Part shown: in pieces, positions 2,758 through 56,421 of the stretch
Layout: each line of letters opens with the position of its first letter
Numbering within the stretch: position 1 is the first letter of the stretch
Virus genome (UHGV): UHGV-1377268
Length of the DNA stretch: 60,976 nucleotides
Strand: one strand, 5' to 3'
Origin: a virus
The notes under the pieces: generated by a model
Told to the model about the DNA's origin: nothing
The model's database searches: none
What the model saw: the letters and a program-made list of their open reading frames with translations, nothing else
Made by a program: the position numbers and the translations under genes

Positions 2758-3061
2758 TTACAGTAAGTTGAGCGATAGAGAAATCGATCGTCTTGTCTTG
2801 AATACTATTTACGGTGTTCACGCTGACGATAAAGATATTCAGGGTTGTTGGTCACGAGGTGGTTTTAAATATACCAGTGACGCTTCTGACGCATGGCCGA
2901 TTATTACGGGGAATAAAATAGATATTAACTGGGGTGATGATGTGCACCCTGCACTTAAAGGTGCTGTGATTGCTTCAAGAGGAAAACTTAGTGCTACACA
3001 CGATAACCCACTTCGCGCAGCAATGATCGTATTCTTACAGATGCAGGAAAATAAACAATGA
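2750..3061 (+). CDS. hypothetical protein
   Basis: 103 aa ORF whose start overlaps the upstream stop (ATGA). Confidence 0.45.
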   Translation: MTDYSKLSDREIDRLVLNTIYGVHADDKDIQGCWSRGGFKYTSDASDAWPIITGNKIDINWGDDVHPALKGAVIASRGKLSATHDNPLRAAMIVFLQMQENKQ

Positions 3062-3408
3062 AACTCTGCTATATTGCCGGGCCTTACCGCGCTGAGTGTG
3101 CGCTTAAAACATCCCGTAACGTGTCCCGTGCTGAACAAATGGGTAAACGTCTGACGTTAGAGCGTCCTGAATGGTTCCCGGTAATCCCACACAAGAACAC
3201 CGAACTTTGGGACTTCGACGGCGGGTTACGTAATATCCAGCCTGAATACTATCTGTCAGGTACACTCGAAGTTATGCGCCGCTGTGATGCTGTTCTGGTG
3301 CTTCCTGATTATCGTCGTTCGTCTGGTACACTGGCAGAAATTGCAGAGGCTGAACGGCTGGGTATCCCCGTTTATTACAGCGTGGAGAGTGTGCCAGATG
3401 GTGATTAA
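3058..3408 (+). CDS. DUF4406 / nucleoside 2-deoxyribosyltransferase-like protein
   Basis: N-terminal MKLCYIAGPY.. and overall pattern fit the deoxyribosyltransferase-like fold family; start overlaps the upstream stop. Confidence 0.45.
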   Translation: MKLCYIAGPYRAECALKTSRNVSRAEQMGKRLTLERPEWFPVIPHKNTELWDFDGGLRNIQPEYYLSGTLEVMRRCDAVLVLPDYRRSSGTLAEIAEAERLGIPVYYSVESVPDGD

Positions 3409-4480
3409 CATGGAATGCCTGATCGGTATGCGTATGATGCTGGCTGATAATAGTATCGATGCAGTCGTGACGGATCCGCCTTATGGACTCAGTAAACAAC
3501 CTGATATGAACGAAGTTTTACGCCACTGGTTAAACGGTGACGATTATGTTCATACAGGCGGTGGTTTCATGGGTAAAACCTGGGATAGTTTTGTTCCGGG
3601 TCCGTCAGTCTGGAAAGAAGTTTTCCGCGTCCTGAAACCCGGTGGTCATCTGCTGGCGTTTTTCGGAACACGTACCTATGACCTGGGAACACTGGCGATC
3701 CGTTTAGCAGGATTTGAAATCCGCGATCAAATTGACTGGGTTTATGGTTCCGGTTTCCCTAAGTCACTGAATGTGAGTAAGGCCACGGACGATGAACAGT
3801 GGCAAGGATGGGGAACAGCTTTGAAACCTGCTCACGAGCCAATTTGCGTTGCACGTAAACCACTGGCAGGAACTGTTGCTGAAAACGTTCTGCAGTTCGG
3901 TACGGGCGGGATGAATATTGATGACTGTCGGGTTGGCGATGAAGTTCGTTTTAACCCGCCTGCTTTATTACCAGCAGGCGGTAATAGTCTAAATATGTCT
4001 GCTGTTGGTATGCCGGAAAATGTAGATGGTAATACTGTTAGTGGCCGCTGGCCCGCAAACTTCATTCATGATGGTTCAGATGAAGTAATAAACCTGTTGC
4101 CCGGTGGTTCTGAACGTTATTTCTATTGCGCTAAAGCGAGCAAGTCAGACCGTGATGAAGGTGTGATGTTGGCGATGGTAACGGGTGCGGAAATGACCGG
4201 GCGTGAACCTGATACTGACGGGTTAAACAGCCCGCGTGCGGGTGCTGGGCGTACATCTGGCGCACGTAATAACCATCCTACGGTGAAACCTACAGCACTG
4301 ATGCAATGGCTTGTGCGTCTTGTTACACCACCTGGTGGTAAAGTTCTGGATCCGTTCACGGGTAGCGGTTCAACTGGTAAAGCCTGTGCAATTGAAGGTT
4401 TTGATTTTATCGGTTTCGAAATGGATCCACATTATTGTGAAATAGCTAAACAGAGGATTGCTTATGTCCACAATCGTTGA
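3398..4480 (+). CDS. DNA methyltransferase, beta-class N6-adenine/N4-cytosine
   Basis: Catalytic motif IV VVTDPPYG near the N-terminus and AdoMet motif I DPFTGSGSTG near the C-terminus (beta permutation). Confidence 0.8.
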   Translation: MVINMECLIGMRMMLADNSIDAVVTDPPYGLSKQPDMNEVLRHWLNGDDYVHTGGGFMGKTWDSFVPGPSVWKEVFRVLKPGGHLLAFFGTRTYDLGTLAIRLAGFEIRDQIDWVYGSGFPKSLNVSKATDDEQWQGWGTALKPAHEPICVARKPLAGTVAENVLQFGTGGMNIDDCRVGDEVRFNPPALLPAGGNSLNMSAVGMPENVDGNTVSGRWPANFIHDGSDEVINLLPGGSERYFYCAKASKSDRDEGVMLAMVTGAEMTGREPDTDGLNSPRAGAGRTSGARNNHPTVKPTALMQWLVRLVTPPGGKVLDPFTGSGSTGKACAIEGFDFIGFEMDPHYCEIAKQRIAYVHNR

Positions 4481-20387: not shown

Positions 20388-20475
20388 TGGCGGATAGTAC
20401 AGGATTCGAACCTGTGAACCGTTTCCGGTTTATCGGTTAGCAACCGACCGCTTTCGGCCTCTCAGCCAACTATCC
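20388..20475 (-). tRNA. tRNA-Ser (anticodon GCU), type II with long variable arm, CCA encoded
   Basis: GGATAGT/ACTATCC acceptor stem, anticodon loop UUGCUAA, T-arm ACAGG-TTCGAAT-CCTGT, 3' GCCA. Confidence 0.8.
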
Positions 20476-26001: not shown

Positions 26002-26059
26002 TTGACTGCTTAACCTCCTGTTAGTAGTATTACGTTAAACAACAGGAGGTTTTTATTTT
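26002..26059 (+). promoter_or_regulatory. terminator hairpin sequestering the RBS of the downstream HEG, with an internal sigma70-like promoter
   Basis: Stem aacctcctgtt (26012-22) / aacaggaggtt (26041-51) with an 18-nt loop and a T-run; AGGAGG SD at 26045-50 lies inside the 3' arm; TTGACT 26002-07, 17-bp spacer, TAGTAT 26025-30 would start transcription inside the loop. Confidence 0.5.
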
Positions 26060-26981
26060 GACCAGAAGAAAGACAGAACAAGAAAGAACTTCTGAAATTT
26101 TAGAAGTTTGTAAAAATACAAACTATCGTTTTATTAAATTTGTAAATGGGTACAAAAATGCTTCCAGCAGAATAGTCATGTATTGTGAAAAACATGGTGA
26201 ATGGGAAACATCATGCGACCTAGTCATAAACGGTAAAAATTTCTGCAGGAAATGTCGCAATGAAAAATTAAATTCAATTAATAGTATTAACCAAAAAGAA
26301 TATGAAAAAAGAATTGCTGATGTTTGTAATTCACGAGGTTATACGTTTATAAAATGGATTGAAACTTACCATGGGGTTCGTACAAAAGCATTGATACAAT
26401 GCGCTAAACATGGACAATGGGTTTCTTCTGGTAACAACATCACAATAAATAAAAGTTTTTGTAAAAAGTGTTATTTTGACAGCAAAAAGACCCCGTTAAA
26501 TTTAAGAGAAAAAGAAATAAATGAAAAATGTCATTCGTTAGGTTATGACTTTTTAGGGTGGGTAGACAAATATACTAACCAATACAGTAAGATTAAAGTA
26601 AAATGTCAAAAACATGGTGAATTTGTAACAACACCTACATTGTTATTACATGCTGGTAGGCGTTGTGCAGGTTGTGCAGCAACAGGTTTCAAGATTAAAA
26701 ATAAAGCTAGTTTATATATTTTGAGATCTGTTAGTGGTGAATATTTGAAGATAGGTATCAGTAATCATGTCGAAAAACGAATAAAAATATTAAGAAAAAG
26801 AACTCCATTTGAATTCAATGTTATTGAAATATATCACTCTGATGGTGCAACCATTCGTTCGCTTGAAAAAGACTTTCATTCTCATTTTGAATCTGCCGGG
26901 TTGACAGGGTTTGATGGTTGTACAGAGTGGTTAAAATGGAATCCGAATATAACCACTCTGATACGTATGATTACGGGATAA
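26058..26981 (+). CDS. homing endonuclease-like protein, T5orf172 (GIY-YIG-like) domain with three N-terminal Zn-finger-like modules (HEG1); TTG start
   Basis: Three tandem Y.F..W...Y.......C.KHGEW........C..C modules, then GFKIKNKASLYILRS..YLKIGIS..VEKRIKILR.. T5orf172 signature. Confidence 0.6.
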   Translation: MTRRKTEQERTSEILEVCKNTNYRFIKFVNGYKNASSRIVMYCEKHGEWETSCDLVINGKNFCRKCRNEKLNSINSINQKEYEKRIADVCNSRGYTFIKWIETYHGVRTKALIQCAKHGQWVSSGNNITINKSFCKKCYFDSKKTPLNLREKEINEKCHSLGYDFLGWVDKYTNQYSKIKVKCQKHGEFVTTPTLLLHAGRRCAGCAATGFKIKNKASLYILRSVSGEYLKIGISNHVEKRIKILRKRTPFEFNVIEIYHSDGATIRSLEKDFHSHFESAGLTGFDGCTEWLKWNPNITTLIRMITG

Positions 26982-31716: not shown

Positions 31717-32550
31717 ATGAAAAAATCCATTATTGAGATAAATAATAGTTTACCTAACAAAAATATAAAATGTATTGGGTATTTATCATCGAACGAAAAG
31801 GCGTTGTTTATATGTGAAAAAGGGCATGTTTGGTTTAGTAAGTTTTCTAATGTGAAATTTTTAAAACGAGGTTGTCCGCATTGTTCTAAACGTGCAAAAT
31901 TGAACATTGAAACAATAAATAACCTCCTCCGCATGAGAGGTATAGAATGTATAAAATATGGTGGTAGCTCTTTGAAAATTAGCACTTTTAAATGCGTTTG
32001 TAATAACGAATGGAAAACTAATTTAAATTCAGTGAAAGATAGAATGACTGGTTGTCCTCGGTGTTCAGGTAAAGAAGTATTAACTATTGAAAAACTAAAC
32101 GATGAAATAAAACATAAGGGTATAGAATGTATAGAATTTAACAGAGGGGTGAAACAAAAGTCAAAATTTAAGTGTCAACATGGGCATACTTGGGAATCTT
32201 CATCTGATAACGTTAAAAATAATAACACGGGGTGTCCTGTTTGCGCTAAAACAGGTTATGACATTAATAAAAAAGGAACGTTATATTGCTTGGTTAGTCA
32301 AAACAAGAAGTATATAAAAATAGGTATAAGTAATAATCATAGAAAGCGAATTAAAATATTAAGAAACGCAACACCTTTTACGTTTGATGTATTAAGGTTG
32401 TTTTCATCTGATGGTTTAACCATAAGAAATTTAGAAAAGGAATTTCATAAAATCTTAAAATCTGCAAACTTAAAAGGTTTTGATGGTGCAACTGAATGGT
32501 TTGAAAACGAAATAAAAATACAAACTGTATTTAAAATGTTAGGGGTCTAA
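31717..32550 (+). CDS. homing endonuclease-like protein, T5orf172 domain with three Zn-finger-like modules (HEG2)
   Basis: Three C..H.W....C..C modules, then GTLYCLVSQNKKYIKIGISNNHRKRIKILR..; paralog of HEG1 and HEG3. Confidence 0.6.
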   Translation: MKKSIIEINNSLPNKNIKCIGYLSSNEKALFICEKGHVWFSKFSNVKFLKRGCPHCSKRAKLNIETINNLLRMRGIECIKYGGSSLKISTFKCVCNNEWKTNLNSVKDRMTGCPRCSGKEVLTIEKLNDEIKHKGIECIEFNRGVKQKSKFKCQHGHTWESSSDNVKNNNTGCPVCAKTGYDINKKGTLYCLVSQNKKYIKIGISNNHRKRIKILRNATPFTFDVLRLFSSDGLTIRNLEKEFHKILKSANLKGFDGATEWFENEIKIQTVFKMLGV

Positions 32551-35758: not shown

Positions 35759-35928
35759 TTGGATACGTGTTAGTTATCATCCTCAACAGTTCAACAATCG
35801 AACCTGTGAATGACAATATTCAAACGTGGGCTGAGTGTCAGGCAGCATTGAAAGTTGAACAGTTGTATCATCCTGAAAATAAATACGGCTGCGCTGACGT
35901 TTACCGCGACGAAAACGCCCCGGAGTAA
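35752..35928 (+). CDS. hypothetical small membrane protein
   Basis: 58 aa ORF overlapping the upstream stop; ends inside terminator hairpin 35917-35934. Confidence 0.25.
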   Translation: MLIGYVLVIILNSSTIEPVNDNIQTWAECQAALKVEQLYHPENKYGCADVYRDENAPE

Positions 35929-35934
35929 CGGGGC
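35917..35934. terminator. hairpin terminator between convergent units
   Basis: gccccg-gagtaa-cggggc, with a U-run on the minus strand. Confidence 0.4.
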
Positions 35935-35942
35935 TATTCAAT

Positions 35943-36647
35943 TTAAGGCGTCGGAACAAGCTGTTCAGCAATCAACAGCACCTGTGTAGCAGTAAACGCT
36001 GCACCGTTACTGACGATCGTCAACTCTGTACCGTTTGTTGCAATATTCCCATCCTGGTCGATACTCAGGAACGTTCTGAACGATACATTATCACTGGTCA
36101 CGCTGCTATCTCGTGAATAAATCAGTGTGTTACCTGTTGTACCGACAAAATTCAGGGTCATGCTGCGGTTTTCGGTTGACCCTGCCCACGAAGCAATAAG
36201 GTTAAGTTTAAAATTAACCGTCATGTTCTGGTTGAATACGTGCAGTTTGTTATCAGTGGTGTTGAAGAATGGCGCTAACGTACCACCGCTTGGGGTGAGT
36301 GCTTTCAGTGCGTTAATCAGGTCGATCGGCGATCCGGTTGGAATAACCAGTGAGATACCCGACTAGGTCACCTCTGACTTCTGGCGCATGTAAGATGCAC
36401 CCTGTAGACTATCCAGAAAATCCTGTTCACTTCCTGTGTTACCCTGCTGTAGCCAGATATCATAAGCGCTTGCCCCGCTGGTAATATCAATATCGCTGAC
36501 ATACTGGAAAAAACGTACCGGGTTATGGCTCTCACCCGGTAAAACTGTTGTTGTACCGTAAAGAAATTTACCATCACTCAATGCATCATTGATTTTGGTC
36601 AATAAATCGTCACTGGTTTCACTACTCAAGAGCGTTAGCGTGGTCAT
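35943..36647 (-). CDS. tail-fiber-motif protein: 94-aa ORF, in-frame UAG (36363-36365), then 46 open codons running into the 93-aa ORF (possible readthrough product)
   Basis: Both ORF-track ORFs (36363..36647 and 35943..36224) share one frame; only the TAG separates them; there is no SD before the downstream ATG; the N-part carries the fiber motif SAYDIWLQQGNTGSEQDFLDSLQG. Confidence 0.4.
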
Positions 36648-38410
36648 TAGAATATACTCCCATAATCTGGTGTTCCGACAGCGTTTACTGTACCTGTAAA
36701 CGCTTCTTCCTCGAATTCTACGCGCTTCGGTGAAGTAGCAATAACGGTTGCATCGAAAAAGTTAGGTGATTTAGAACCATTTGGTTTTTTATCAATAACG
36801 ATTTTCCCCGCACCATTAGTGCTATACGTTGGCTGACATAGTTCTGCCTCAAGACGCTGCGCGTTTTCCATTGTCGGATCAATCAGAATAATCTCATCAG
36901 GATCCTGTGGTTGACCTTCGACATACCATTTATAAATTCTCTGGCAACGCATACGCAGCGCCCATGATGCTTGTGCTTTATAGTTGCTGAAATAATCTTT
37001 GTTCGTTTTACGGTCTTTATCGCCCGGTATCGTTCCGCCGATAATATCACCGCCAGGGTTGACTACTTTTCCGTTCGGTAACCACGGACGAACGCGGAAC
37101 CGCAACGTATCCTTACGATCGTTAGCCGCTACTTTAACGCCAGCGCCCACGCCGTTCACTTCATACCAGTATTCATCAACACCGATCATGTTCGCAGCAT
37201 TCAGCATACCAGGTGCAGCCAGTTCTGCGCTGCGGTGGTCAAGTTGCAAATGAGTGATAAATACACCATGAGCAACAACCAGTGCGCTCGCATCTTCACC
37301 ACCGTCTGCGGCATCTTGCCCGGCAATGCGTTTACCTGTTGGTGCAAGCAGACCGTTTGCTTTACGCCACGCGATATCTTTGAACGCATCGAATGCGGCC
37401 CGCGCCCATTCAGCTTTAATGAGTACACCCTGAACGGCTGCAGCGTAATCGCGGTCAACTTCCTGTGCAAAAATATGCTGTAGACCTTTTTCAGCGAATG
37501 ACTGTTTTTCTCGTTTATACCATTCGTCATCTTTCGCCGGGTGATCGCGCCAGTCCAGAACCATGACGCGCAATTTACCACGGGGTATTTTCTTACCCGG
37601 TTCCCATTCAATACCTGCTTTACGGTTGCGATAAAAAACGTTACCGACACCATTAACAGAACTGATATCAATACGAACGTTGGTGTTAGCTGACAATGAC
37701 GCTTCGATCAGTTCAGGGCGATCAACGTGTGCAGCCTCATCGAGAAAATAAATTGACTTACGACCACCGCGCCCGATGTTATCCCCGGCCTCACCAGTAA
37801 TTGTTGCACCGTTTTCCGGGTTGATACATTTCATGAACGTCAGGTGATCTTTTTCACGATAACCAACCGGACGTAATTCAGGAGGCAGAGCGCGGATGAT
37901 CTGACGGATTTTTTCAAATATGCTGTCAGGATCCCCCAGTTTATCAACGAGCGTTTCTTTACGTGACCCCCAGCCAACTGACGAACCGGGACGATAGAGC
38001 CAGGCCCACACGGATAACCCGCAGGCAACCCACGTTGCGCCATAATCGCGGGATTTTTCCCACAATCCTTTTTCTTTATCTTCGAGCGCTTCATAAACGA
38101 ACTGAATCATATCGATCTGACGTTCAAACAGACAGAACGGCATGTTCGGCGGGAATTCCGTACCAACGTTACGCGGATCGTAGGTAAACGCCCAGTCGAG
38201 GATGAACGCCACCGGGTTAGTTTCGTAATACTTTTTCAGTACCGGAATGATTGCCCGATCGGTGCGCATACGGTTTATCAGGTTGATGCGGTCGATGTAA
38301 CACTGACGGTAATCAGGCCGTGGTTCGCCTTTGCGCCAGATCCGTTCATCTTCTGCGTAAGCGTCCCGCCAGCGCGGGTACTTGTGAATGTTACCAGCGA
38401 ATTTATTCAT
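36647..38410 (-). CDS. terL: terminase large subunit
   Basis: 587 aa with ATPase and nuclease-domain architecture; the downstream gene start overlaps its stop. Confidence 0.8.
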   Translation of the reverse strand: MNKFAGNIHKYPRWRDAYAEDERIWRKGEPRPDYRQCYIDRINLINRMRTDRAIIPVLKKYYETNPVAFILDWAFTYDPRNVGTEFPPNMPFCLFERQIDMIQFVYEALEDKEKGLWEKSRDYGATWVACGLSVWAWLYRPGSSVGWGSRKETLVDKLGDPDSIFEKIRQIIRALPPELRPVGYREKDHLTFMKCINPENGATITGEAGDNIGRGGRKSIYFLDEAAHVDRPELIEASLSANTNVRIDISSVNGVGNVFYRNRKAGIEWEPGKKIPRGKLRVMVLDWRDHPAKDDEWYKREKQSFAEKGLQHIFAQEVDRDYAAAVQGVLIKAEWARAAFDAFKDIAWRKANGLLAPTGKRIAGQDAADGGEDASALVVAHGVFITHLQLDHRSAELAAPGMLNAANMIGVDEYWYEVNGVGAGVKVAANDRKDTLRFRVRPWLPNGKVVNPGGDIIGGTIPGDKDRKTNKDYFSNYKAQASWALRMRCQRIYKWYVEGQPQDPDEIILIDPTMENAQRLEAELCQPTYSTNGAGKIVIDKKPNGSKSPNFFDATVIATSPKRVEFEEEAFTGTVNAVGTPDYGSIF

Positions 38411-41593: not shown

Positions 41594-42508
41594 ATGAACT
41601 TCTTCAAAAACGCAATTATCTACCGTATCAGCAACCCTATGTCACTGATGGCACAACTGGCGACCATCGAACAACAGTTGCTACCGTTCCAGTTTACGCC
41701 GTGCGGCTCCCAGGATACGGCACGCACTGGATGGGTTCCGGCGACTGCTTTCAGCCAGACCCTGGCGCATCGATCGCACACTCAGTATCTGTTAACCGTG
41801 CAACGTCAGGAAAAGATCCTGCCTGGCCCGGTCATTAAACAGGAACTGAACGCGCGTATTGCGAAACTGGAAAGTGAACAGGGTCGTAAACTGAAGAAAA
41901 CAGAGAAAGACAGTCTGAAAGATGAAGTGTTGCATTCGTTATTACCACGGGCATTCACCAAAGACAGCCGCACGCAGTTGTGGATCGATGTTATGAGCGG
42001 TCTGATTGTTGTCGATGCGTCCAGCGCTCGCAAAGCTGAAGATGCACTGGCGCTGCTGCGTAAAAGTCTGGGTAGCCTCCCGGTTATCCCGCTGACCATT
42101 GAAAATCCTGTTGAACTGACGATGACTGAATGGGTACGGTCCGGCAACGCACCTTCAGGTTTCGCGATCGGTGACGCGGCGGAACTGAAAGCGATCCTGG
42201 CTGATGGTGGTATTGCCCGCGTTAAGAAGCAGGATCTGGTAAGCGATGAAATCGCAACGCACATCGAAGCCGGGAAACTGATTACTAAACTGGCGCTGGA
42301 CTGGCAACAGCGGGTTACGTTCACGCTGACTAATGACGCGATTTTAACGCGCCTGAAATTCTGCGACGAACTGATCGACCAGAACGATGATATCGATCGC
42401 GAAGATGTGTTAGCGCGGTTCGACGCTGATTTTACACTGATGACAGGTGAACTTTCAGCGCTGATCAAACAGCTTGTAACCGCTCTGGGTGGGGAGGCTC
42501 AACGATGA
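41594..42508 (+). CDS. rdgC: recombination-associated protein RdgC
   Basis: Collinear match to enterobacterial RdgC hallmarks ([75 protein letters not shown]). Confidence 0.8.
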
Positions 42509-47804: not shown

Positions 47805-48298
47805 TACTTCAACTCCTCCTGCGGTGCGGCTGCGAGCATGGCGGCGCGTAGGGCGCGAACTACGGCTGAATCTCTATTTATCGGAACCAACTGTTCCTGG
47901 TACTCGTCAAGAATTGTGAGAAAGTCAGCCGCAGCCTCTTTAAGCTCGCCAGGCACTACCGTCGCTGGCTGTGTGACGATTATCCCATCAGGTTGCGCAT
48001 TTTCATATTTTATCCGCTCTTGTATCTCATCCAGTTCGTCTTCAGTGAGACCAGCAATGACCACCGCCGGTTTGCTGTCCATTGCAATACGGTTTTCCAG
48101 ATGTTCAATATATTCTTTCAGAACATCCGCCCGGTGTTTACCCCACGGCGTCAGGACATCAAAACGCTTATCAGTTTGCACCCACGCTGTTTTATCATGC
48201 CACTCATAAAATGCCAGCGCCATGCGGGCCAGTGCAGCAGCCTCGCCACACTGAACGTGATCGGTTTCAATGATGTTCAGCAGTTCTTCTCTGGTCAT
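47804..48298 (-). CDS. hypothetical protein
   Basis: 164 aa acidic ORF in the early-gene block upstream of the ParB-like gene. Confidence 0.45.
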   Translation of the reverse strand: MTREELLNIIETDHVQCGEAAALARMALAFYEWHDKTAWVQTDKRFDVLTPWGKHRADVLKEYIEHLENRIAMDSKPAVVIAGLTEDELDEIQERIKYENAQPDGIIVTQPATVVPGELKEAAADFLTILDEYQEQLVPINRDSAVVRALRAAMLAAAPQEELK

Positions 48299-48420
48299 AA
48301 CACCGCCCTCAACAGAAGTATCAGCCCGCCAAATAAAAACGCGCCGATAATTGTTTTAAAAAATGAACGGCGTTCTTCCGCCGTTCTGAACCGTGACGCT
48401 TCTATTAATAGTTTATTCAT
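48295..48420 (-). CDS. small membrane protein
   Basis: 41 aa ORF with overlapping starts and stops. Confidence 0.2.
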   Translation of the reverse strand: MNKLLIEASRFRTAEERRSFFKTIIGAFLFGGLILLLRAVL

Positions 48421-49171
48421 GATCTTTCAGCGCCTTCAGTGCTTCATACTGTTCAGCGGTCAGTTCAACCAGGACTTTACCGCCTTCCTGCCGCGTGACC
48501 GACCATTCACCACGGATGGCTTCAACAACTGAACGAATCAGTTTTGCCGGAGGGCGTTTAACGGTAGCAACGTCCGGGTTTTTAAACAGGTTAATCGCGG
48601 CTGATGCACTGATCGACCCTTCCTGAATCCGGCGTTTGAGTTCCAGCGGCATTTCAAGGATAGTCAGCAACTGGTAAACGTGCTGTACGGTTTTACCGAC
48701 CTCGTGGGCGATTTCTTCAACGGTCATACCGTAGGATTTAAAGCGACCGTAATGAACCGCACGTTCGACGGCTGACCACTGGCGACCATTGTTAGCGTTA
48801 AAGTTGGTTTTAGCCTGCGCCAGTTCGTCACCAGACGCTTCAACGACTTCAACACGCTGGAATGGTACACCCTCAGCGATCAGTTTACGCAGCGCCCGTA
48901 AGCGGTGCTCACCATCGCGCACATACGGCACACCGTCGATAACTTTAACGGCGATTGGCGGGACGAAATCACCGTTGCGATACGCTTTAACGAACTGTTC
49001 GATATGCGCCAGAGTATCCGGCTGTTCCCAGTAGTTTTCTGTGAACATACCACGCGGGTTAAAGCCCGGCTCGATCTGGATAATGCGCGGGTCGATCATG
49101 AAGGAGTTAGCGCGTTTTACGTTTTCTTTGTCTGCTTCTGACAGCTTGCGCAGTGAATGGATGTTGGACAT
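48413..49171 (-). CDS. ParB-like nuclease domain protein
   Basis: ParB/Srx-fold N-terminal domain pattern (..IAVKVIDGVPYVRDGEHRLRAL..). Confidence 0.55.
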   Translation of the reverse strand: MSNIHSLRKLSEADKENVKRANSFMIDPRIIQIEPGFNPRGMFTENYWEQPDTLAHIEQFVKAYRNGDFVPPIAVKVIDGVPYVRDGEHRLRALRKLIAEGVPFQRVEVVEASGDELAQAKTNFNANNGRQWSAVERAVHYGRFKSYGMTVEEIAHEVGKTVQHVYQLLTILEMPLELKRRIQEGSISASAAINLFKNPDVATVKRPPAKLIRSVVEAIRGEWSVTRQEGGKVLVELTAEQYEALKALKDHE

Positions 49172-55442: not shown

Positions 55443-55918
55443 TGTTCAAACTGTGAGGGATGGGTGATGAAACGAAATTCACCACCTGCGTTAACTACAA
55501 CTGTACCAAAAGTGGCCTGCGCCTGGGCGCGTTTATCACCGGGGGTCATGTGCCAGTTCGGCTCTTTCATTTCAGCCGCGATAAACATACCAATTTTACG
55601 ACCAACATCAGCAGGGGTGATAATCAACGTTTTGATCCCGATATAATCACTGGATTTCATAACATCGTTGATTTTTTTGCTGGTATTACCCAGACCGTAA
55701 CGCACCCACTGGCCTTTTTCGTTTTGTAAAGCGCCGTTATTGTTTCGCCAGAGGCGTTGACCAGCACGGGCCGCGATCAGTTCGCATTCTTTAGACGTTG
55801 CTGATTCACTTTTACCATCTTCATGCGGTTTTCCGTCCGGCTGAAAAAGGCCGTATAACTCATACAGCGCCATCTGGCTGATACCGTGACGTTTCGCCCA
55901 CTCTTCAAGAGGTGTCAT
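55427..55918 (-). CDS. VRR-NUC domain nuclease
   Basis: ..DYIGIKTLIITPADVGRKIGMFIAAEMKE.. carries the PD-(D/E)XK VRR-NUC signature. Confidence 0.6.
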   Translation of the reverse strand: MTPLEEWAKRHGISQMALYELYGLFQPDGKPHEDGKSESATSKECELIAARAGQRLWRNNNGALQNEKGQWVRYGLGNTSKKINDVMKSSDYIGIKTLIITPADVGRKIGMFIAAEMKEPNWHMTPGDKRAQAQATFGTVVVNAGGEFRFITHPSQFEQWMKE

Positions 55919-56421
55919 AAGTGTTTAGTCCCGCTGGTGAGATATTTGATCTGATGAAGGCAATCATCCAGCGCGTTATGAAAAACGCCATCACGGGTAA
56001 ACAGTTTAGTATTGATACCCAGCAAATCCACCGCCGTGCGAACATCACGAACGTTCCAGAATTTCCACGGGCAGCGGATACCTACTGCATCAAATCATGC
56101 TTCTAAAATGGTGATATCAAATACAGACCCGTTACCCCAGGGAAGCGCATCAGAACGAATGAATTTTGCAAAACGTTGTGCTACTTCACGTGGGTCATCA
56201 GTCCCGCCAAACGCGTCAGTACGCGCCTGTTCAGACTGCTGCGACCACCAACGCATTGTATCAGCATCAGCATTACCGTATGACAACGCGCTAAAACCCA
56301 TTGATGCGTAAAACTGTTCACCGATATTACCTTTGCGATTGAAATATACAGCACCAATGGAAAGCACCGCACAACCGGGTTTCGTGCCACATGTTTCAAT
56401 ATCAATCATCAAATCACGCAT
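55915..56421 (-). CDS. DnaQ-like DEDDh 3'-5' exonuclease interrupted by an in-frame UGA (56095-56097)
   Basis: Exo I MIDIETCG and Exo II GNGSVFDITIL lie before the stop; Exo III FHNALDDCLHQIKY lies in the same frame after it; the C-part has no start codon and ends in an ATGA overlap with the VRR-NUC gene. Confidence 0.6.

Follow-up and report, generated by a model that had tools for sequence, protein, structure and literature searches.

A lineage-specific amber codon interrupts the gene for an Sf6-type knob protein in a wild Klebsiella siphophage and most likely abolishes its function

Introduction

Knob domains of the Sf6 type form the C-termini of proteins in unrelated phages (PMC3741392). 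Leavitt et al. (PMC3741392) described homologs outside the P22-like phages that possess short N-terminal extensions and whose function in these phages has not been established, and in the P22 needle the distal tip domain is dispensable in the laboratory (PMC3741392). Members of the knob family are recognized as homotrimers with L-glutamate bound at the subunit interfaces. In the homolog considered here, as in all known knob homologs (PMC3741392), the knob domain is situated at the C-terminus. The protein resembles the knobs of Sf6 gp9 and HS1 in that its C-terminal ~150 residues are ~50% identical to them and adopt the same predicted TNF-like jelly roll (TM 0.83). In contrast to the P22 gp26 and Sf6 gp9 needles, however, its N-terminus is modeled as a small alpha/beta domain followed by a short helical motif, with no long coiled coil. 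Moreover, unlike Sf6 gp9 and HS1, it comes from a siphovirus-type Klebsiella phage, in which its gene follows terL and lies far from the tail genes.

In the genome analyzed here, this gene is interrupted by an in-frame stop codon, an arrangement that invites comparison with several well-described systems. In classical amber mutants, such as P22 26-amH204 and those of T4 and lambda, a single-base change to UAG likewise disrupts an otherwise intact gene, with a phenotype that varies according to whether the host carries a suppressor; the present allele differs in having arisen in a wild human-gut population, without laboratory mutagenesis or suppressor selection. The coat gene of phage Q-beta, whose readthrough product is A1, shares with our locus an in-frame stop and a long open extension that lacks its own start. 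In Q-beta, however, the stop is conserved, a complete coat domain precedes it and an extension domain follows it, and the phage requires both products, whereas the stop described here occurs in a single clone and interrupts a domain. In-frame stops in phage genes from gut metagenomes are also seen in recoded phages, some of which read TAG as Gln or TGA as Trp. In contrast to these phages, the present genome has only two in-frame stops in ~100 genes, uses TAG and TGA as ordinary terminators and lacks a suppressor tRNA, and its relatives have sense codons at both stop sites.

Results

Two annotated open reading frames correspond to one gene

The window, that is, the whole 60,976-nucleotide stretch under analysis (UHGV-1377268), represents the ~61-kb genome of a siphovirus-type Klebsiella phage. 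A sequence-only reading had drawn attention to an ORF (36363..36647) that carries a widespread tail-fiber motif and ends at a TAG (36363-36365), to a frame that stays open for 46 codons beyond this stop and runs into a second ORF (35943..36224) whose ATG lacks a Shine-Dalgarno sequence, and to the resulting continuous frame of 234 codons. This description proved correct throughout. The first ORF (94 aa, minus strand) carries SAYDIWLQQGNTGSEQDFLDSLQG, and the frame beyond the stop continues to a TAA at 35943-35945, with no further stop or frameshift, to give a conceptual product of 94 + 1 + 139 = 234 residues; the uninterrupted ORF of related phages encodes 234-238 aa. The first 46 codons after the TAG are devoid of in-frame ATG, GTG or TTG codons, so that the ATG at 36222-36224 is the first possible start; it is preceded by GTATTCAACCAGAAC, in which no Shine-Dalgarno match was detected.

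Table 1. Features of the knob-fiber locus and its surroundings, in window coordinates.
Feature	Position	Strand	Remarks
Whole knob-fiber gene	35943..36647	-	234 codons plus TAA; interrupted at codon 95
Amber codon TAG (codon 95)	36363..36365	-	from TGG (Trp), by a G-to-A transition at window position 36364
94-codon ORF upstream of the stop	36366..36647	-	sole part expected to be translated; 94-aa N-terminal fragment
In-frame stretch after the stop, 139 codons	35946..36362	-	most of the Sf6-type TNF-like knob; intact
ATG of the called second ORF	36222..36224	-	internal Met142 in mid-knob, without Shine-Dalgarno sequence; M142 present in intact proteins
G+C-rich hairpin, 6 bp, all G-C	35917..35934	.	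terminator-like; 8 bases past the TAA of the gene
Large terminase gene (terL)	36647..38410	-	its TAA overlaps the knob-gene ATG (TAATG at 36647)

At the DNA level, the locus is 93-96.5% identical to the corresponding regions of the Klebsiella phages vB_KpnS-Carvaje, VLCpiS10a and Kpn BU9. In all three isolates, a single 705-bp CDS is annotated at this site (Carvaje gp015, VLCpiS10a S10a_00054 and Kpn BU9 CDS0036), which bears the name 'tail needle knob' in two of them, Carvaje and Kpn BU9, but is listed as a 'hypothetical protein' in VLCpiS10a. An alignment of the window with these isolates comprises 711 columns without gaps, with a mean column identity of 97%. The TAG of the window aligns with TGG in 12 of 12 relative loci, including those of Carvaje, VLCpiS10a and Kpn BU9, three IMG/VR contigs and five Logan metagenome contigs. 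Similarly, in an alignment of 78 relatives that extends down to 51% identity, the column of codon 95 contains Trp in 77/77 proteins, and a protein search of public data retrieved ~75 distinct full-length variants of 231-238 aa. In the knobs of Sf6 and HS1, the residue aligned to Trp95 is Tyr. The open continuation after the stop is not a product of chance, since its translation is 96-97% identical to the C-terminal part of the intact gene of the relatives. Judged from these alignments, the two ORFs are one gene interrupted by an amber codon, because every relative has a fused ORF with TGG at the position of the TAG, and the change from TGG to TAG is a single G-to-A transition private to the lineage of the window.

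This comparison with related phages, which the sequence-only reading had proposed as a check, also bears on the notion of two genuine separate genes, one for the 94-aa protein and another for a 93-aa protein initiated at the ATG at 36224. Metagenome gene callers annotate the locus in this way. However, all relatives show one ORF rather than two genes with a ribosome-binding site for the second, no Shine-Dalgarno sequence precedes the ATG at 36224, and Met142 lies in the middle of the knob, so that a 93-aa protein begun there would contain little more than the second half of the fold. We therefore consider the probability of two separate genes to be negligible. Reinitiation close to the stop was likewise rejected, given the lack of in-frame ATG, GTG or TTG codons before Met142. 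A gene on the opposite strand was also considered, but the plus-strand ORFs at 36127-36366 and 36350-36484 are antisense frames, and this possibility was dismissed because the matching antisense ORF of Carvaje carries stops in VLCpiS10a, Kpn BU9 and the window.

A GGGAG sequence is located 9 nt upstream of the knob-gene ATG. The knob gene is co-transcribed with terL and probably also translationally coupled to it. The hairpin downstream of the gene has T-rich tails on both strands, with convergent genes beyond, and this terminator-like element closes the terL-knob transcription unit opposite these convergent genes.

The stop cuts through the first long strand of a TNF-like knob

In the intact ortholog, residues 86-229 match the Pfam family PF16532 (Phage_tail_NK) with an E-value of 2.9e-50 (170.7 bits, compared to a cutoff of 27), and the 139 codons after the stop are by themselves sufficient for a match (E 3.9e-44, 150.8 bits) that covers profile positions 43-175 of 175. 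Residues 81-229 are ~50% identical to the crystallized knobs of Sf6 gp9 (3RWN) and HS1 (4K6B), with E-values of ~1e-47. Consistent with these similarities, an AlphaFold2 (AF2) model of the ortholog as a monomer, which has a mean pLDDT of 70.5 and higher values in the knob, returned 3RWN and 4K6B as its top matches in Foldseek (E ~1e-17, TM 0.83-0.84 normalized to the target, 53% identity), whereas its more distant fold matches were TNF/C1q-like trimers, including PRD1 P5.

In the N-terminal part of the protein (residues 1-85), no Pfam match exceeded the curated cutoff, and the sole hit was a weak one to DUF1737 (E 0.14). In the model, approximately residues 1-51 form a small beta-alpha-beta-beta unit, followed by two short helices (residues ~57-84) that represent a motif common to many tail-fiber PHROGs. 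The widespread tail-fiber motif noted from the sequence is borne out by this comparison, with residues 48-88 matching tail-fiber and tail-protein PHROGs at E-values from 1e-6 to 1e-2. Neither a portal-plug domain of the P22 gp26 type nor a long coiled-coil shaft was found in the model of the ortholog, and the protein is thus not a tail needle, despite the name given to it in two of the isolates. Instead, the 234-aa protein, encoded as it is by a siphovirus-type genome with a tape-measure gene, belongs to the knob homologs 'outside the P22-like phages' that have short N-terminal extensions.

Residue 95 falls midway along the first long strand of the knob, which comprises residues 86-102 in the model. 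The 94-aa fragment thus consists of the N-terminal domain, the two-helix motif and the first 9 residues of knob strand 1.

Neither programmed readthrough nor code reassignment accounts for the stop

Three explanations had been put forward from the sequence alone: programmed readthrough to yield an extended fiber, an amber mutation maintained on a supE/supF host, and a pseudogene. The last of these, a pseudogene or loss-of-function allele, is favored by our analysis, whereas programmed readthrough found no support, and the picture of a supE/supF laboratory host does not fit a sequence derived from human gut metagenomes.

Programmed readthrough of the type that gives rise to Q-beta A1 would generate mostly the 94-aa protein and a minority of a 234-aa extended fiber. 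What the locus has in common with such systems is the bare anatomy of an in-frame stop followed by a long open frame without its own start. However, the stop is limited to one clone and shows no conservation at codon 95 in either the 12 aligned loci or the 77 proteins, all of which specify Trp. Moreover, it cuts a beta-strand inside a single domain rather than marking a boundary between a core and an extension. There is also no sign of a stimulatory element, as folding predictions for the 110 nt that follow the UAG did not surpass those for shuffled sequences (z = +0.35) and no Rfam match was obtained after the stop. These 110 nt differ at a single position from VLCpiS10a, which has TGG, and since the flanking sequence is essentially the same in the relatives with TGG, nothing has evolved around the stop. 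Programmed readthrough is therefore extremely improbable. Translational bypass of the kind described for T4 gene 60, with a hop between ACC94 and the in-frame ACC104, can be drawn on paper, but no structure is present and the flanks are essentially identical in the TGG relatives.

Reassignment of the genetic code was rejected on the basis of stop usage, a tRNA scan and a scan for other interrupted genes. Of the 42 other genes called in a 20-kb stretch, 3 are terminated by TAG, as are 6 of 71 long open stretches in the whole genome. The genome contains no suppressor tRNA gene, its only tRNA being tRNA-Ser(GCT), and when the ORFs of the relatives were scanned against the window, in-frame stops were detected in only two real genes, one of them a TAG and the other a TGA.

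Two further observations emerged from these scans. The tRNA-Ser(GCT) gene is located at 20388-20475 (minus strand) of the window, and a tRNA-Ser gene is also annotated in Carvaje and VLCpiS10a. In addition, an ORF of 164-167 aa that is antisense to the region of a ParB-like gene (window 48101-48601, plus strand) is open in Carvaje, VLCpiS10a and Kpn BU9 but interrupted by a stop in the window; this frame probably arose by chance.

The amber allele recurs in several assemblies of one clone

Over 20.3 kb, the window is 100% identical to scaffold_88 (61,211 bp) of the assembly from BioSample SAMN02334148, and it is 99.97-100% identical to contigs of other assemblies from BioProject PRJNA217052 (Fiji gut metagenomes). 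The TAG allele recurs in SAMN02334148 scaffold_88, SRR2249417, ERZ2663925 and ERZ2664017, and all contigs that were read with this allele represent the same clone. Searches of sources listed as ENA, JGI/IMG and Logan retrieved the exact 94-aa product on 29 contigs in 43 index blocks and the 93-aa product on 32 contigs in 46. The recurrence of the TAG in several assemblies of the clone makes a chance read error unlikely. These assemblies differ at occasional single bases elsewhere and are thus not copies of one consensus; they could be non-independent, all stemming from the samples of one person.

If the true sequence were TGG, the A would have to be a sequencing or assembly error that was propagated through re-assemblies of the same reads. 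Several observations are compatible with such an artifact: judging by contig names, coverage in some assemblies is only ~5x, all TAG-bearing contigs come from a single project (PRJNA217052) and may share reads, and no full-length allele with the lineage markers D109, A152 and I176 is on record. However, the same base was called in contigs from different runs and assemblers that also show occasional single-base differences from one another, the site lies outside any homopolymer, and a second nonsense codon is reproduced across the assemblies of the clone in the same way. An artifact is thus very unlikely.

The mutation appears recent and the gene is otherwise conserved

The knob gene of the window carries 9 private substitutions, one of which is upstream of the stop and synonymous, whereas 8 are at or after the stop and comprise the nonsense change, 3 missense changes and 4 synonymous changes; some intact relatives likewise carry 2-3 private changes of their own. 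The missense changes are N109D, G152A and T176I, with the G152 column being invariant in 78 relatives. The clustering of private changes after the stop is suggestive of relaxed constraint, but it is statistically not significant. Similarly, the downstream ratio of private missense to synonymous changes (3:4) is, in what is an underpowered test, no different from that of the lineage genome-wide (224:426), so that there is no positive signature of decay. Since the 139 codons after the stop contain no second lesion, the mutation appears to be recent. In nearly all relatives, the knob gene is intact and evolving under purifying selection, which argues that it is not freely dispensable.

A second nonsense codon and the possibility of suppression

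The sequence-only reading had counted the amber codon as the second in-frame stop of the genome, and another one indeed exists, although it may differ from the stop that was meant. In the gene for an Rv2179c-like 3'-5' exonuclease (window 55918-56421, minus strand), a TGA at 56095-56097 occupies codon 109, where VLCpiS10a has TGG. The orthologs of Carvaje and Kpn BU9 are uninterrupted, and tblastn comparisons with the one and the other place the stop of the window at an identical alignment position. Truncation deprives the protein of its C-terminal third, including the ...FHNALDD... segment, and the resulting 108-aa product recurs in at least 6 assemblies of the same clone. Because both stops correspond to G-to-A changes at TGG codons, hypermutation or deaminase editing was considered, but it was rejected, since among 694 window-private substitutions identified in 42.7 kb of a four-way alignment, 39% are GC-to-AT changes, as compared to 38-41% in the three relatives.

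Two nonsense codons in ~100 genes are more than expected for a fit wild phage, and they would be compatible with a host in which readthrough is elevated or a suppressor is present. In nature, a Klebsiella host with an amber suppressor tRNA or leaky termination could provide enough full-length knob to render the allele conditional rather than null, and the UGA in the exonuclease gene could likewise be read by tRNA-Trp. In favor of this possibility, every assembly of the clone retains both nonsense codons, each of which replaces a Trp codon, and the 139 codons after the amber are intact, with a ratio of nonsynonymous to synonymous changes that does not exceed the average of the genome. In enterobacteria, UGA is the stop most prone to leakage and is read in error as Trp; in the exonuclease, this would reinstate the wild-type residue. 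In addition, amber suppressors have been reported in natural coliforms. However, no suppressor tRNA gene is present in the phage itself, and a recent mutation would in any case be expected to leave the downstream frame intact, the gene having only 9 private substitutions. Moreover, the base after the UAG is U, and stops followed by U are among the better-terminating tetranucleotides in E. coli. Finally, the common amber suppressors insert Gln, Tyr, Ser, Leu or Lys, whereas the site is Trp in 77/77 relatives and Tyr in Sf6. On balance, suppression in nature is unlikely, albeit the strongest of the alternatives, and such probability as we grant it is owed largely to the second nonsense codon.

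Disruption of the knob gene is not confined to the window. A 37.5-kb Logan contig (ERR13985744, here L013; positions 2792-3495) lacks one base of a T6 run near codon 46, so that the gene is split into calls of 77 aa and 164 aa. This lesion could be a real frameshift or a homopolymer error. With L013 carrying an independent frameshift, disruption of the gene appears to recur occasionally, whereas intact copies are far commoner. A search with the 94-aa fragment, which returned few candidates and provides no measure of frequency, identified no truncated alleles other than the cluster of the window and the L013 fragment. A comparable situation is seen for an RdgC-family gene, which encodes 304 aa in the window (within ~41594-42508), VLCpiS10a and Kpn BU9, but only 110 aa in Carvaje (gp008, L001 1-174); in a metagenome contig (L016 173-1088), it is broken up into 171 + 94 aa. 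Since this gene is also shortened or split, it seems that accessory genes in this phage group are disrupted now and then.

Discussion

The amber codon described here is very probably an ordinary, recent and lineage-specific nonsense mutation of the knob-fiber gene, most likely one that causes loss of function. The locus corresponds to a single gene for a 234-residue virion-fiber-like protein composed of an N-terminal domain, a helical motif and a C-terminal knob, in which a G-to-A transition in one clonal lineage of a Carvaje-like Klebsiella siphophage turned the TGG codon of Trp95 into TAG. Translation would then end after 94 residues, and the knob would not be made. As the 94-aa stub would lack the domain that forms the trimer in this fold class, the protein is predicted to be lost or non-functional. 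Polarity on other genes is not expected, since the knob gene is the last in its unit. The phage may tolerate the loss, at least in the short term, because the protein would be accessory rather than essential.

A clone without an intact knob gene should be at a disadvantage. It is conceivable, albeit distinctly unlikely, that the clone thrives on a wild Klebsiella host with high readthrough, caused by a natural suppressor tRNA or weakened release factors, such that both interrupted genes are dialed down, or that loss of the knob was positively selected. If it was selected, for instance through escape from a host defense or a change of receptor, the locus would act in nature as an on/off switch for an accessory receptor-binding protein. 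A weak pointer in the same direction is the independent frameshift in the T6 run of L013.

While the nonsense mutation that we favor is of a well-known kind, its value lies in the correct annotation of the locus and in the hint that loss of a conserved knob protein is possible. The appropriate annotation is one interrupted gene, namely a pseudogene or an amber allele of the ortholog of Carvaje gp015, rather than two hypothetical proteins or a recoding site. The locus also represents a small natural experiment, in which a clone of a wild gut phage persists although its copy of an otherwise conserved knob-fiber gene is broken, suggesting that the protein is accessory. If the clone or a revertant could be obtained, a comparison of the two would reveal the role of Sf6-type knobs outside the P22-like phages (PMC3741392).

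The genomic surroundings of the locus show some additional peculiarities. Two genes with domains of the T5orf172/MUG113 type (homing-endonuclease-like) are found at ~31717-32550 and ~26058-26981, both on the plus strand, beside the portal and head-morphogenesis genes. The former coincides with an ~840-bp gap in the alignments to Carvaje and VLCpiS10a, across which no homologous sequence was aligned, which suggests that it is a mobile insertion. Moreover, the virion genes of the window (terS, terL and the knob gene, portal, head morphogenesis, scaffold/major head and tail) are non-contiguous, with the individual blocks separated by small opposite-strand ORFs of unassigned function, an arrangement that is common to the whole group (relatives L019-L024).
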